Origin: Escherichia phage alpha3
Reading direction: 5' to 3' (one strand)
Length of the DNA: 6,087 nucleotides
Sequence record: NC_001330.1
Made by a program: the position numbers and the translations under genes. How positions within the stretch are numbered: position 1 is the stretch's first letter; each line of letters opens with the position of its first letter. This document shows, in pieces, positions 1 to 5,094 of the stretch. Under the pieces are notes generated by a model that was not told where the DNA came from, did no database searches, and saw nothing but the letters and a program-made list of their open reading frames with translations.

Positions 1-26
1 TTGTTGACATTCCCTAAACCCTTATG

Positions 27-65
27 AGACTCTTGCTTCAACGAAACGAAGTAGGAGTCTTTTTT
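27..65 (+). terminator. Candidate stem-loop plus T-run immediately downstream of gene H (across the circular junction)
   Basis: Seen in sequence: 27-39 (agactcttgcttc) pairs with 48-60 (gaagtaggagtct), a 13-bp stem including 2 G-U pairs, with an 8-nt loop (40-47) followed by TTTTT (61-65). The stem is AU-rich, so it is probably weak. The right arm contains the AGGAG ribosome-binding site of the ORF starting at 66. Confidence 0.3.
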
Positions 66-209
66 ATGAAACCAGCTCATCGCCTCTATCATCCTGTGCT
101 TGGTTCTTGGTTGTTTAAGTGCCCCGTTTATGTTCGTTATGAGTCCCTTCATCACGGTCGCCTCATTAAGGTTCGTGCTGTTCGTGACCTTTCCCGCGTC
201 AGCAGTTGA
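66..209 (+). CDS. Hypothetical small basic protein (47 aa; 61 aa if the upstream in-frame ATG at 24 is used), H-A region ORF1
   Basis: ATG at 66 preceded by AGGAG (53-57) with an 8-nt spacer. Product MKPAHRLYHPVLGSWLFKCPVYVRYESLHHGRLIKVRAVRDLSRVSS is rich in R/K/H. About half the codons end in T (hand count ~25/47), matching the bias of the known genes. Stop TGA 207-209 overlaps the TTG at 206 of the next ORF. No homolog recognised. Confidence 0.4.
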   Translation: MKPAHRLYHPVLGSWLFKCPVYVRYESLHHGRLIKVRAVRDLSRVSS

Positions 210-433
210 TTGCCAATCCTAAAAATTGCTTTGACGTTGTCATTGCTGAGATTGACGTTACTCACCTTTCTGTCACTTGGTATGATTTTGAAGCTGAAGA
301 GTATGCTGAGTGTGATTCCGGCACTATGGAGCTTGTTGTTTCTCAGGTAAATTCTGGCGAGGTTATTCGCTCATCTGAAGACCTGTTTGTTGATGTTGAT
401 GATATGGAATGGCCTTATGAAATTGCGGAGTAA
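206..433 (+). CDS. Hypothetical acidic protein (75 aa from TTG 206; 35 aa if it starts at ATG 326), H-A region ORF2
   Basis: Open frame from TTG 206 (TTGA overlap with the ORF1 stop) to TAA 431-433. Product is strongly acidic (many D/E, e.g. DLFVDVDDMEWPYEIAE). Frame-specific T-ending codons are about 41/75 by hand count, versus about 10/41 in the +1 frame of the same stretch. No clear ribosome-binding site before 206 or 326, so the start is uncertain and translation may be coupled to ORF1. Confidence 0.4.
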   Translation: MIANPKNCFDVVIAEIDVTHLSVTWYDFEAEEYAECDSGTMELVVSQVNSGEVIRSSEDLFVDVDDMEWPYEIAE

Positions 434-436
434 GTC

Positions 437-526
437 ATGGAAACTGTTATCGGAAAATTTATTGCTCTGGCTATTGTTGCTCTTATGCTGTATGGAATTG
501 CCTGTTTGATTCGGAGGTTTCCGTGA
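437..526 (+). CDS. Hypothetical 29-aa hydrophobic peptide (single predicted transmembrane helix), H-A region ORF3
   Basis: ATG 437 preceded by GGAG (427-430) with a 6-nt spacer, 3 nt after the ORF2 stop. Product METVIGKFIALAIVALMLYGIACLIRRFP, stop TGA 524-526. About 15/29 codons end in T. Too short for the supplied ORF track. No homolog recognised. Confidence 0.35.
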   Translation: METVIGKFIALAIVALMLYGIACLIRRFP

Positions 527-699
527 AATATTTTAGTTTGGTAGATGAACATTATGCTTACTGCCCTGATACAAGGATTTTGCACATTACTCGTAGTCGT
601 GTTTCTGACCCTCGGTATGAGCGTCGCTTTCTTACTGATGAGGAGCATTTTGCACTTTTGGATTGGTTAAAAAATCGCCCAACTTACATTAATTCTTGA
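523..699 (+). CDS. Hypothetical 58-aa protein with GTG start, H-A region ORF4
   Basis: GTG 523-525 overlaps the ORF3 stop (GTGA) and is preceded by GGAGG (513-517) with a 5-nt spacer. Product (M)KYFSLVDEHYAYCPDTRILHITRSRVSDPRYERRFLTDEEHFALLDWLKNRPTYINS. About 33/58 codons end in T. Stop TGA 697-699 lies inside the -35 hexamer of the gene A promoter. Not in the supplied ORF track. Confidence 0.4.
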   Translation: MKYFSLVDEHYAYCPDTRILHITRSRVSDPRYERRFLTDEEHFALLDWLKNRPTYINS

Positions 700-725
700 C
701 AGACCTTTAAAATACCCTCTATATT
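696..725 (+). promoter_or_regulatory. Sigma70-type promoter for gene A (pA analog)
   Basis: Perfect -35 TTGACA (696-701), 18-nt spacer, -10 TATATT (720-725), about 35 nt upstream of the A start codon. Position matches pA in the phiX174 H-A spacer. Predicted start site around 732-733. Confidence 0.6.
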
Positions 726-755
726 GCCCTCATAGTTTCACTACGAGGGCTTTTT
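726..755 (+). terminator. Rho-independent terminator-like hairpin in the H-A spacer / gene A leader (TH analog)
   Basis: GCCCTC (726-731) pairs with GAGGGC (745-750); an inner 3-bp helix 733-735/741-743 is possible; followed by TTTTT (751-755). The right arm contains the gene A ribosome-binding site GAGGG (745-749). Confidence 0.5.
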
Positions 756-758
756 CGC

Positions 759-2243
759 ATGGCTACTGAAATCTTCTCTGATGTTGTTAAGTCTGTTTGG
801 TCGCACGCTACGGCTAAGCATGCTCATCTTCGTATGGCTGTTCAGGTTGATAATCGTAGTCGCCTCCTTTCTGACCTCGTTTATCAGTTGGAAAAACGCC
901 TTTCTGAAGAGACTCATTTGGATGATGAGACTCTTGCCATTTATGAATCTCAGACTGCCCTTCTGGAAGACCATATGGCACTGGTTCGGAAGTGTGCTGC
1001 CCAACTTGATAATAGTAACACTATAGACCACCGTACCCCTTTGGATGCCGAATGTGTTTTCCTGTTTGAAATGATTTGCCCGGGTGTTCGCTACGGTAAA
1101 ACGTTAAATTCTCTTTGGACTAAGTATGTTGTTCAATGGCCTGAGAAGTTAATCCGTCAGGAGTTAGACATGGTTAAGCCTTTATCCTTTAAGGATGAGG
1201 TTGCCAAGTACATGGAGAAGATGCAGGAAAAAACACGCAAAAATCGCATGACTCAGAAAGTTATTAATGAGATGCGTATTGCTCACCAAAAAGGCTGGTT
1301 CTTCGTATTTGATACGTTAACCCTTGCTGATGACCGTTTGCAGGCTTTTAATGAAAACCCCAATGCTCTTCGTGATTATTTCAGGACTGTTGGTCGAGCT
1401 GTTCTGCGCGCTGAAGGTCGTTCGGTCAAGGATTCCTACAACGACTGCTATCGCTATCTTTGTGTGCCGGAGTTTGGAGGTCAGCACGGCCGTCTTCATT
1501 GGCACGTTGTGCATATGGTGCGGACTCTTCCTTTGGGAAGTCATGACCCTAATTTCGGTCGCAAGGTACGTAATTATCGCCAGATTAACTCGTTCCGTGG
1601 CATGTGGCCTTATGGCTTCACGCAACCGATAGCTGTTCGCTATCAACATGACGCTTATTCCCGCAAAGGTTGGCTGTGGCCTGTTGACAAAACAGGAAAA
1701 GCAATGCAGAGTAAGCCGTATCAGGCGGTCGCATGGTATGTGACCAAGTATGTAGCCAAGCAATCTGACCAGCGTCAGAAAGCTATTACCGAGAGACAAA
1801 AGAAATGCAAGAATCCATTAATGGCAATCTGTCTGAAGAAAGAATTTCGGGTACGCAGCAGTCGGAAACTCGGAATGGAGCTCCCGTCAATGGCTCATCT
1901 GAGCAACAAGGTACTTCTGGAACTGAGCCGAATCAGCTTCGATTCCAGTCCTCTGTATCAGATAGTGAAAGAGAACGCCAAAAAGCAATTGACCTTGAAC
2001 ATCGGCGCGCTGCCTTTGCACGTCATTTTGGATGTGCGCCCGGAAGTGAGAAGCATGTTGAAAACTATTCGTCGTTTGATGAAAAAGACACCCGAGTTCA
2101 ATTGGCAGAGTTCTATCGCTTCAATGACGGTCACTTTAAAAAATGGGGATATTTCTGATGAAGCACGTCAATACATTATTGATGCAGGAATTACGCCTAC
2201 TGATTTGCGAGCTAAAGCGACTCAGACTTTCGGCGGTAAGTGA
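759..2243 (+). CDS. A: Replication initiation protein A (rolling-circle nickase/ligase), 494 aa
   Basis: Strong similarity to phiX174 protein A as recalled (FVFDTLTLADDRL, NPNALRDYFR, CVPEFG..GRLHWH, and the active-site tyrosine pair in YVTKYVAK). GAGGG ribosome-binding site 9 nt upstream. The in-frame stop at 708-710 excludes a longer N-terminus. Contains gene B, the (+) origin and the start of K. Confidence 0.93.
   Translation: MATEIFSDVVKSVWSHATAKHAHLRMAVQVDNRSRLLSDLVYQLEKRLSEETHLDDETLAIYESQTALLEDHMALVRKCAAQLDNSNTIDHRTPLDAECVFLFEMICPGVRYGKTLNSLWTKYVVQWPEKLIRQELDMVKPLSFKDEVAKYMEKMQEKTRKNRMTQKVINEMRIAHQKGWFFVFDTLTLADDRLQAFNENPNALRDYFRTVGRAVLRAEGRSVKDSYNDCYRYLCVPEFGGQHGRLHWHVVHMVRTLPLGSHDPNFGRKVRNYRQINSFRGMWPYGFTQPIAVRYQHDAYSRKGWLWPVDKTGKAMQSKPYQAVAWYVTKYVAKQSDQRQKAITERQKKCKNPLMAICLKKEFRVRSSRKLGMELPSMAHLSNKVLLELSRISFDSSPLYQIVKENAKKQLTLNIGALPLHVILDVRPEVRSMLKTIRRLMKKTPEFNWQSSIASMTVTLKNGDISDEARQYIIDAGITPTDLRAKATQTFGGK
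1002..1031 (+). other. Viral-strand (+) origin of rolling-circle replication, 30-bp protein A recognition/nick site
   Basis: CAACTTGATAATAGTAACACTATAGACCAC matches the phiX174 origin (CAACTTG/ATATTAATAACACTATAGACCAC as I recall it) apart from a few changes in the AT-rich centre. Predicted nick between G1008 and A1009. It encodes AQLDNSNTIDH of protein A. Confidence 0.8.
1221..2243 (+). CDS. A*: A* (internal in-frame restart product of gene A); start codon uncertain (ATG 1212, 1221 or 1248)
   Basis: By alignment the phiX174 A* start (MKSRRGFAIQ) falls on EKTRKNRMTQ here. The nearest in-frame ATG is 1221, with GGAG at 1214-1217 but only a 3-nt spacer. ATG 1248 has no ribosome-binding site. Confidence 0.3.
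   Translation: MQEKTRKNRMTQKVINEMRIAHQKGWFFVFDTLTLADDRLQAFNENPNALRDYFRTVGRAVLRAEGRSVKDSYNDCYRYLCVPEFGGQHGRLHWHVVHMVRTLPLGSHDPNFGRKVRNYRQINSFRGMWPYGFTQPIAVRYQHDAYSRKGWLWPVDKTGKAMQSKPYQAVAWYVTKYVAKQSDQRQKAITERQKKCKNPLMAICLKKEFRVRSSRKLGMELPSMAHLSNKVLLELSRISFDSSPLYQIVKENAKKQLTLNIGALPLHVILDVRPEVRSMLKTIRRLMKKTPEFNWQSSIASMTVTLKNGDISDEARQYIIDAGITPTDLRAKATQTFGGK
1805..2158 (+). CDS. B: Internal scaffolding protein B, 117 aa, encoded inside gene A in another frame
   Basis: Acidic/Q-rich N-terminus and a C-terminus QLAEFYRFNDGHFKKWGYF that matches phiX174 B (PAEFYRFHDAEVNTFGYF). Stop TGA 2156-2158 overlaps the K start. Confidence 0.9.
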   Translation: MQESINGNLSEERISGTQQSETRNGAPVNGSSEQQGTSGTEPNQLRFQSSVSDSERERQKAIDLEHRRAAFARHFGCAPGSEKHVENYSSFDEKDTRVQLAEFYRFNDGHFKKWGYF

Positions 2244-3066: not shown

Positions 3067-4362
3067 ATGTCTAATGTACAAACTTCCGCTGAACGTGAAA
3101 TTGTTGACCTCTCTCATCTTGCCTTTGACTGTGGCATGCTTGGTCGTCTGAAGACTGTTTCATGGACTCCTGTTATCGCTGGCGATTCCTTTGAGCTTGA
3201 TGCTGTTGGTGCTTTGCGTCTTTCCCCTCTGCGTCGTGGTTTAGCTATTGATTCTAAGGTTGATTTTTTCACCTTCTACATTCCGCATCGTCATGTTTAT
3301 GGCGACCAGTGGATTCAGTTTATGCGTGATGGTGTTAATGCTCAGCCTCTGCCTTCTGTTACTTGCAATCGCTATCCGGACCATGCTGGTTATGTAGGTA
3401 CTATTGTTCCTGCAAATAACCGTATTCCTAAGTTTTTGCATCAGAGCTATCTGAACATTTACAATAACTATTTCCGTGCCCCGTGGATGCCTGAGCGTAC
3501 CGAGGCCAACCCGTCTAATCTTAATGAGGATGATGCTCGTTATCGCTTCCGTTGCTGCCACCTTAAAAATATTTGGTCTGCTCCGCTGCCTCCGGAAACC
3601 AAATTGGCTGAAGAAATGGGTATTGAAAGCAATTCCATTGATATTATGGGTTTGCAAGCCGCTTATGCGCAGCTTCACACTGAGCAGGAGCGTACTTACT
3701 TTATGCAGCGTTACCGTGATGTTATCTCCAGCTTTGGCGGTTCAACCTCCTATGATGCCGATAACCGACCGTTGCTTGTTATGCACACCGACTTCTGGGC
3801 TTCCGGTTACGACGTTGACGGTACCGACCAATCTTCCCTTGGACAATTCTCTGGTCGAGTCCAGCAGACGTTTAAACACTCAGTGCCGCGATTCTTCGTG
3901 CCTGAGCATGGTGTCATGATGACTTTGGCTCTGATTCGCTTCCCGCCTATCAGTCCGTTGGAGCACCATTATCTTGCTGGTAAGTCTCAGTTAACCTATA
4001 CCGACCTTGCTGGCGACCCGGCTCTGATTGGTAACTTGCCTCCTCGCGAGATTAGTTATCGAGATCTGTTCCGTGATGGTCGTTCTGGTATTAAGATTAA
4101 AGTTGCCGAGTCTATTTGGTATCGTACTCATCCTGATTACGTTAACTTTAAGTATCATGATTTGCATGGATTCCCGTTCCTTGATGATGCGCCTGGTACA
4201 TCTACTGGTGATAATCTTCAGGAAGCTATCCTTGTTCGTCATCAGGACTATGATGCTTGCTTCCAGTCTCAGCAGTTGCTACAGTGGAACAAACAGGCTC
4301 GCTATAACGTTAGTGTTTATCGCCATATGCCTACTGTACGTGATTCCATTATGACCTCTTAA
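3067..4362 (+). CDS. F: Major capsid protein F, 431 aa
   Basis: Extensive similarity to phiX174 F (MSN.QT.AER...DLSHL.F..G..GRL.T...TPVIAGDSFE.DAVGALRLSPLRRGLAIDS.VD.FTFY.PHRHVYG...QLLQWN...RDSIMTS). AAGGA (3055-3059) with a 7-nt spacer. The upstream in-frame ATG 3034 used by the track lies inside the hairpin and is not the start. Confidence 0.95.
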   Translation: MSNVQTSAEREIVDLSHLAFDCGMLGRLKTVSWTPVIAGDSFELDAVGALRLSPLRRGLAIDSKVDFFTFYIPHRHVYGDQWIQFMRDGVNAQPLPSVTCNRYPDHAGYVGTIVPANNRIPKFLHQSYLNIYNNYFRAPWMPERTEANPSNLNEDDARYRFRCCHLKNIWSAPLPPETKLAEEMGIESNSIDIMGLQAAYAQLHTEQERTYFMQRYRDVISSFGGSTSYDADNRPLLVMHTDFWASGYDVDGTDQSSLGQFSGRVQQTFKHSVPRFFVPEHGVMMTLALIRFPPISPLEHHYLAGKSQLTYTDLAGDPALIGNLPPREISYRDLFRDGRSGIKIKVAESIWYRTHPDYVNFKYHDLHGFPFLDDAPGTSTGDNLQEAILVRHQDYDACFQSQQLLQWNKQARYNVSVYRHMPTVRDSIMTS

Positions 4363-4395: not shown

Positions 4396-4959
4396 ATGTA
4401 TCAGAATTTTGTCACTAAGCATGATACTGCCATTCAGACTTCCCGTTTTTCTGTTACTGGCAATGTTATTCCTGCTGCTCCTACTGGTAATATTCCTGTC
4501 ATCAATGGTGGTAGTATTACCGCTGAGCGTGCTGTTGTTAATCTTTACGCTAATATGAATGTTAGCACTTCTTCTGATGGTTCTTTCATTGTTGCTATGA
4601 AGGTTGATACTTCTCCGACTGACCCTAATTGTGTCATCTCTGCTGGTGTTAACCTTAGTTTTGCTGGTACCTCATACCCGATTGTTGGTATTGTTCGTTT
4701 TGAGTCTGCTTCTGAACAGCCTACTTCTATTGCTGGTAGTGAAGTTGAGCATTACCCAATTGAAATGTCTGTTGGTTCTGGTGGTGTTTGTTCTGCTCGC
4801 GATTGTGCTACTGTTGATATTCATCCTCGTACTTCTGGTAATAATGTTTTTGTTGGTGTGATTTGTTCTAGCGCTAAATGGACCTCCGGTCGTGTGATTG
4901 GTACCATCGCTACGACTCAGGTTATTCATGAATACCAAGTCCTTCAGCCGCTTAAATAA
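4396..4959 (+). CDS. G: Major spike protein G, 187 aa
   Basis: The N-terminus [11 protein letters not shown] and the C-terminus (RFESAS...[12 protein letters not shown]...VLQPLK) are similar to phiX174/G4 G (MFQTFISRHN...RFESS...PRTPGNNVYVG...CLQPLK). AAGGA (4384-4388) with a 7-nt spacer. The track's upstream ATG 4366 lies in the hairpin. Confidence 0.92.
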
Positions 4960-4984
4960 AAGGCTGCCGCACTCCCGGTTAGAT

Positions 4985-5069
4985 GCCTGCCCAGTGTAGG
5001 GCAGACCGAGCCGTACGGAGATACCCGATAAACTAGGAACGTGGAAGGCGTTAGCCGCCTTCCCTCCTG
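4985..5069 (+). other. Putative complementary (-) strand origin: primase (DnaG) recognition region in the G-H spacer
   Basis: The 135-nt G-H spacer contains a 6-bp hairpin CTGCCC/GGGCAG (4987-5004, loop AGTGTA), the palindrome CCGTACGG (5011-5018), and an 8-bp hairpin GGAAGGCG/CGCCTTCC (5043-5063, loop TTAGC) followed 4 nt later by CTG (5067-5069). G4-type origins are hairpins with a 5'-CTG-3' primer start on their 3' side. Confidence 0.45.
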
Positions 5070-5094
5070 CTAAGCCCAAAAAGGAGTTACAGCG

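Follow-up and report, generated by a model that had tools for sequence, protein, structure and literature searches.

A variant of the phiX174 viral-strand origin in gene A of phage α3 and its natural variation across Bullavirinae

In phiX174, the origin of viral-strand synthesis, ori(+), is a 30-mer in which a recognition block, an A+T-rich spacer and a binding block follow one another, the right-hand block being the one bound by protein A; this organisation is known from the older mutational literature on phiX174 (Baas, Fluit, van Mansfeld, Jansz). The phiX174 element (CAACTTGATATTAATAACACTATAGACCAC) occupies 4299-4328 of GenBank record J02482, in which the rep_origin feature 'origin of viral strand synthesis' is set at 4306, that is, at base 8 of the 30-mer. 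Cleavage and religation take place at G4305/A4306 inside this 30-nt ori+, and phiX174 protein A is a HUH endonuclease with His263/His265 and Tyr343/Tyr347 (bioRxiv 10.64898/2026.07.25.740675). Here, we examined Escherichia phage alpha3 (α3), whose DNA was analysed as one stretch of 6,087 nucleotides (sequence record NC_001330.1, hereafter the window), and in which positions 1002-1031, inside gene A, are almost certainly ori(+), the origin of viral-strand rolling-circle synthesis. The α3 origin is already known, textbook biology, and its detection in α3 brings nothing new. Our analysis documents its presence, uniqueness and reading frame, the constraint on its DNA, its layout of blocks and spacer and, for protein A, the family and the catalytic motifs. 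At the level of sequence, all the features that define a phiX174-type origin were looked for, and all were found.

The 30-mer of α3 and its place in gene A

When up to three mismatches to the phiX174 30-mer were allowed, the window contained a sole match, which lies at 1002-1031 and differs at two positions; the same search of 200 dinucleotide-preserving shuffles gave no match. The α3 and phiX174 forms are identical at 28/30 positions and differ by T>A at position 11 (window 1012) and A>G at position 14 (window 1015). Both changes lie within positions 11-17, the sole stretch that varies internally among the eight natural variants described below, and the left block (3-10) and the right block (20-27) are intact in α3. 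The α3 spacer, ATAGTAA, is A+T at 6/7 positions and equal in length to that of phiX174, and the core of the key block, CACTATAGAC(C) at positions 18-27/28, matches phiX174 fully (window 1019-1029). An initial annotation of this DNA had described 1002-1031 as a variant of the phiX174 30-mer with its differences confined to the AT-rich spacer and its right-hand binding block intact. This description holds throughout: the element sits in homologous codons of a homologous gene, and positions 18-30 are the same as in phiX174.

The exact 10-mer CAACTTGATA, which forms the left block, has a single occurrence in the genome. Sites resembling it at up to two mismatches number seven genome-wide, against 6.5 expected, and additional recognition-like sites in α3 were rejected, as such near-matches are no commoner than chance. 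An Rfam scan of the whole window matched no family.

The 30-mer starts on the first base of codon 82, in frame 1 of gene A, and the initial annotation was right to state that its nucleotides also encode part of protein A: they make up codons 82-91 of a Phage_GPA/HUH protein. These codons read QLDNSNTIDH, and the homologous phiX174 peptide is QLDINNTIDH; both α3 changes fall on second codon positions and are nonsynonymous (Ile>Asn and Asn>Ser). In phiX174 numbering they correspond to T4309A and A4312G, with I110N and N111S in protein A. Since the origin is placed in codons 82-91, the DNA requirement dictates the peptide QLD..NTID. The spacer is the only internal freedom, and there the α3 clade has fixed its two nonsynonymous changes. 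Protein A matches Pfam PF05840 Phage_GPA with 198.3 bits (cut-off 31.4; E=2.1e-58; residues 51-339) and also PF23343 REP_ORF2-G2P with 37.5 bits, and its H247/H249 and Y327/Y331 correspond to phiX174 H263/H265 and Y343/Y347 (Table 1). The origin lies upstream of Met172, the likely start of A*, which would therefore be made without the origin-encoded peptide.

By homology with the annotated phiX174 origin, we infer that the α3 nick would fall between G1008 and A1009. The initial annotation had drawn it at CAACTTG/A, which agrees with the phiX174 rep_origin at base 8 of the 30-mer. Cleavage of α3 replicative form I (RFI) DNA by the phiX gene A protein was reportedly mapped to the origin sequence by Heidekamp, Baas and Jansz in 1982. 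If α3 follows phiX174, protein A would bind supercoiled replicative form (RF) DNA at the right-hand block of the 30-mer, and the A+T-rich spacer would then open; base-pair disruption or duplex opening at the AT-rich region has been proposed from an AlphaFold 3 model, and from a model only (bioRxiv 10.64898/2026.07.25.740675). The + strand of the left block, CAACTTG/ATA, would be cut between G1008 and A1009, with a tyrosine linked to the 5′ phosphate of A1009, and the free 3′-OH would prime host-driven strand displacement. One round later, the second tyrosine would cut the regenerated origin, and the displaced strand would be religated to a circle. For α3, the cut position and each of these reaction steps are taken over from phiX174.

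Table 1. The α3 origin, its parts and the related features of gene A (positions in the window)
Feature	Position	Strand	Basis
ori(+), 30-nt viral-strand (rolling-circle) origin, CAACTTGATAATAGTAACACTATAGACCAC (very probable)	1002-1031	+	match to phiX174 30-mer; conservation
Left (recognition) block, CAACTTGATA, with the nick expected at G1008/A1009	1002-1011	+	exact match; phiX174 homology
A+T-rich spacer ATAGTAA, 30-mer positions 11-17, with 1012 T>A and 1015 A>G	1012-1018	+	
Right (protein A binding, 'key') block, CACTATAGACCAC, 30-mer positions 18-30, same as phiX174	1019-1031	+	
Gene A, replication initiator (HUH endonuclease), 494-codon open reading frame (ORF)	759-2243	+	ORF; gpA annotated at the same place in DQ085810.2
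Met172 (NEMRIAH), likely internal in-frame A* start	1272-1274	+	homologous St-1 A* annotated at 1271-2242; M172 invariant across clades
HUH metal-binding motif H247-W248-H249 (GRLHWHVVH)	1497-1505	+	H247 and H249 invariant across three clades
Catalytic tyrosine pair Y327-V-T-K-Y331 (AWYVTKYVAK)	1737-1751	+	Y327 and Y331 invariant across three clades

Constraint on the DNA and variation across Bullavirinae

To examine the conservation of the 30-mer, gene A of α3, phiX174, G4 and others was aligned by codons, and 561 ten-codon windows were ranked. For nucleotide identity, the origin ranked 1/561 in the α3-phiX174, the α3-G4 and the phiX174-G4 comparison, with values of 0.933, 0.933 and 1.0, respectively, against 0.565, 0.553 and 0.709 for the whole of gene A. 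Its third codon positions were identical between clades at 10/10 sites, compared to 0.45, 0.42 and 0.55 gene-wide in the same three comparisons. The amino acids that flank the origin are unrelated among the three phages (RKCAA...RTPLD in α3, YNVLP...RPEGD in phiX174 and YDVLG...KPLGN in G4). A blastn search of phage records with 150 nt centred on the site gave a full-length match in α3-like phages; with the same query, G4-like records aligned exactly over 61-90, which is the 30-mer, and phiX174-like records over 52-92.

Within the clades, the identical α3 30-mer was present in 15/15 α3-type sequences and the canonical 30-mer in 8/8 phiX/G4-type genomes, and the α3 variant was also found in three metagenomic α3-like contigs. 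The initial annotation had made its reading depend on conservation of the 30-mer in close relatives, and the element is identical in all the α3-like genomes examined. Among 17 α3-like gene A sequences, none of the 30 origin sites varies, compared to 186 of the 348 codons outside the gene B overlap. The single invariant ten-codon window in the region that encodes A only starts at codon 82 (P ~5e-4 for that window). Separately, the longest invariant run in gene A of the α3-like phages is one of 33 nt at window 1956-1988, in the A/B double-coding region; its invariance is likely caused by double coding with gene B (1805-2158, in a different frame).

In phiX174, complete mutagenesis has revealed detrimental synonymous mutations at nine consecutive A codons, Q107-D115, which colocalise with ori+ (bioRxiv 10.64898/2026.07.25.740675). 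These codons are the homologues of α3 codons 82-90. Hence, selection on the 30-mer targets the DNA rather than the peptide, as follows from the island of blastn similarity, the rank in the codon alignment, the clade-wide invariance and the detrimental synonymous mutations in phiX174.

To describe the natural variation of the element, IMG/VR was searched in two ways. The first search used two peptides, remote from the origin, that were taken from a cross-clade protein A alignment (DCY[QR]Y[FL]C and GWLWPVD); it gave 22 contigs encoding protein A, and 22/22 bear the motif at the homologous place. The second used a DNA pattern anchored on both blocks, with 5-11 spacer bases allowed, and gave three further protein-A-encoding contigs, all with the canonical spacing. 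Non-canonical spacings were found solely in contigs without a protein A homologue, as fits chance (by our own estimate, ~50 chance matches are expected for 17 specified bases), and a variable spacer length in nature was rejected.

Eight natural variants of the 30-mer were compared: the form shared by phiX174, G4 and L105, that of the α3 clade, those of L090 (CAACTTGATATATTAGGCACTATAGACCAA), L101 and L069 (CGACTTGATAATACATGCACTATAGACCAT), L066 (CGACTTGATATTAATCTCCCTATAGACCAT), L102 (CGACTTGATAAAAATAACGCTATAGACCAG) and L103 (CGACTTGATATAAAATACACTATAGACCAG), and that of Pectobacterium phage Mimer (CAACTTGATATTAATAACACTATAGACAAG). Positions 1, 3-10, 18, 20-27 and 29 are invariant, and positions 2, 11-17, 19, 28 and 30 vary. 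The length is constant, positions 11-17 always have 5-7 A+T out of 7, and the reading frame of the origin in gene A is identical in all nine lineages checked. The L090, L101/L069, L066, L102 and L103 sequences are IMG/VR contigs of 4.9-5.5 kb from divergent, Bullavirinae-like genomes, with a protein A that is 31-49% identical to that of α3 or phiX174. Like α3, these contigs and Mimer have ACTTGATA and CTATAGAC as blocks at a fixed distance, a middle rich in A+T and an origin that is in frame in gene A. They differ in having A or G at position 2, A, C or G at position 19 and variable bases at positions 28 and 30, and the contigs have spacers unlike that of α3 (ATACATG, TTAATCT, TATTAGG, AAAATAA and TAAAATA). 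This map agrees with the organisation of the phiX174 origin into a recognition block, an A+T-rich spacer and a binding block.

Mimer was recently described as a new Bullavirinae genus, and its authors report a single 38-bp nucleotide match to phiX174, which they leave uninterpreted (Mimer paper). In its record, ON872163.1, CAACTTGATATTAATAACACTATAGACAAG is found at position 3749 on the minus strand, in frame in gpA, and it differs from the phiX174 30-mer at positions 28 and 30 alone; the 38-bp match is probably ori(+). The same record splits gpA into several coding sequences. In summary, the added value of this analysis is modest and consists of a natural-variation map over eight lineages, with two frozen blocks, a fixed spacing and a free but A+T-rich 7-nt middle. 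The signature ACTTGATA-N9-CTATAGAC, in frame in gene A, offers a simple means of finding ori(+) in newly found Bullavirinae such as Mimer.

Readings of the conservation and of the two spacer substitutions

Several points weigh against the reading of 1002-1031 as an ori(+) with frozen blocks and a free spacer. The position of the α3 nick, as proposed above, is taken from phiX174 by homology. L066, L102 and L103 were retrieved with a pattern that itself required fixed bases at positions 3-10 and 20-28, so that these three could show no variation there. Some invariant ten-codon run appears in the A-only region in 7.7% of shuffles, and the within-clade invariance test, taken alone, is only moderately strong. 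In addition, synonymous mutations of the phiX174 spacer codons I110, N111 and N112 have been reported as harmful (bioRxiv 10.64898/2026.07.25.740675), so that the spacer is not fully free in the phiX174 background and that of α3 may not be neutral-equivalent. These three codons are homologous to window 1011-1019, and natural lineages differ at the same positions, which suggests that the tolerance of the spacer depends on the genetic background.

One explanation of the two α3 substitutions is that the α3 origin is a lineage-specific specificity variant, whose spacer changes and the resulting replacements, Ile>Asn and Asn>Ser, are co-adapted to the protein A of α3 and work more poorly with phiX174 or G4 partners. 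All 17 distinct α3-like genomes have the α3 form, and the phiX-, G4-, L105- and Mimer-type genomes are fixed for the canonical form at the spacer positions; moreover, the harm done by synonymous mutations in the phiX174 spacer codons means that the spacer sequence matters in a given background. Some phiX ori mutants were also reportedly compensated through changes near the N-terminus of the A protein (Baas, 1987). However, the spacer differs in almost every lineage while its A+T-richness and length are kept, and a requirement for composition and length fits this pattern better than recognition of a specific sequence; the reported cleavage of α3 RFI DNA by the phiX gene A protein would also mean that nicking, at least, works across the two phages. 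A specificity variant is unlikely. An extended form of this idea is that the two substitutions, which change two residues of protein A and at once give rise to a 5-bp inverted repeat spanning spacer and binding block, mark a co-adapted pair of origin and initiator that gives Alphatrevirus a partial incompatibility, in replication or packaging, with phiX174/G4-type phages in mixed infection; we regard this as a speculative and quite improbable proposal.

The substitutions could also have been selected for creating a hairpin used in single-stranded form, for example in termination or packaging. The α3 origin contains, 3′ of the nick, an inverted repeat with a 5-bp stem, ATAGT-AAC-ACTAT (window 1012-1024), and both substitutions turn phiX mismatches into Watson-Crick pairs, at 11-23 (T·T in phiX; window 1012-1024) and at 14-20 (A·C; window 1015-1021). 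The α3 30-mer folds at -1.4 kcal/mol, compared to 0.0 for phiX174; the values of the single mutants are 0 and -0.3, and few double substitutions of the phiX 30-mer fold as well as α3 (3.5% of all and 6% of those within the spacer). Nevertheless, the hairpin is marginal (z = -1.04, with 24/200 shuffles folding as well) and its 90-nt context has no excess structure (z = 0.06). Among the other variants, those that were folded have no comparable hairpin (0 to -0.3 kcal/mol), Mimer, left out of the folding, has positions 1-27 of phiX174, and in L101 positions 14-20 and 15-19 are unpaired. The observation was, moreover, made post hoc. We therefore rejected the hairpin as the cause of the two substitutions, as it is weak, non-significant against shuffles and missing in the other folded lineages; selection for it is very improbable, and the hairpin is probably coincidental.

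The last explanation, that the 30-mer is conserved owing to selection for the protein A peptide QLD(x)(x)NTIDH, with no DNA element involved, is effectively refuted: although Q82, L83, D84, N87, T88, I89, D90 and H91 are invariant columns in a six-sequence protein A alignment, all ten third positions are identical, including those of Leu (six codons), Thr (four codons) and Ile (three codons), where 42-55% are elsewhere, the residues flanking the origin peptide are unconserved, distant lineages alter the peptide (RLDNTCTIDH, RLDKNNAIDQ and QLDILGTIDQ) and keep the DNA blocks, and synonymous changes at the homologous phiX174 codons are detrimental (bioRxiv 10.64898/2026.07.25.740675).

The rest of the genome and comparison with described origins

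When the whole window was compared by megablast with the phage records of GenBank, the top match was DQ085810.2 (α3), with 99.9% identity along 100% of its length, followed by St-1, Lilleven, phiK and other Alphatrevirus phages at 84-92%. The window differs from DQ085810.2 (6089 nt) by four substitutions and two single-C indels, at 195/196, 335, 338, 2449, 3544 and 4378/4379, none of them in the origin; these are probably sequencing corrections between two α3 entries. The stretch that separates gene H from gene A (window 1-758) is unusually long and has no annotated gene in the α3, St-1 and phiK records; several short ORFs are present in it, and in the Lilleven record three hypothetical proteins are annotated in the H-A intergenic region.

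Window 4959-5091, the G-H intergenic region of α3, aligns to the F-G intergenic region of G4 (76% over 134 nt, E = 1e-20), and Rfam gave no family for it. The F-G region of G4 contains the primase-dependent complementary-strand origin of that phage. Given this role and the alignment, a G4-type ori(-) seems to be present in α3, between another pair of genes.

Compared to the hairpin-loop origins of other HUH systems (CRESS-DNA viruses, the geminivirus nonanucleotide and pT181-type plasmids), the ori(+) of α3 would share the chemistry, with a HUH endonuclease, a tyrosine-5′-phosphate link and initiation and termination at one site. Unlike these origins, its nick site lacks a stable stem-loop, and recognition would depend on two sequence blocks around an A+T-rich spacer in supercoiled duplex DNA. 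A stable hairpin presenting the nick site was not found in the 90-nt context, which folds like its shuffles (z = 0.06).

Within Alphatrevirus, the 30-mer and its gene A codons in St-1, phiK, NC3, WA13, ID21, ID32, NC28, NC35, WA45 and ID62, as well as in NC29, Lilleven, MG945254 and three IMG/VR contigs, are identical to those of α3. The flanks of the 30-mer differ among these phages at wobble positions, for example, CGT ACC CCT TTG GAT versus CGC ACC CCG TTG GAC. The ori(+) of G4 (Gequatrovirus) is the phiX174 30-mer and is 28/30 identical to that of α3, with the same architecture and position in gene A; G4 differs from α3 at the same two spacer positions, and its protein A is longer, which puts the origin at about codon 148.

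The ori(+) of α3 is among the classic cases in which a cis-acting signal for replication lies within the sequence coding for the protein that acts on it. Its counterpart in phiX174, with the nick at G4305/A4306, is like it in the blocks, the length, the reading frame and the family of the initiator, and it too lies upstream of A*, within the N-terminal third of gene A. The two differ in the spacer, which is 7/7 A+T in phiX174 and 6/7 in α3, and in the residues encoded there, Ile-Asn and Asn-Ser, respectively. The origin occupies codons 107-116 in phiX174 and 82-91 in α3, because the N-terminus of the α3 protein is shorter.

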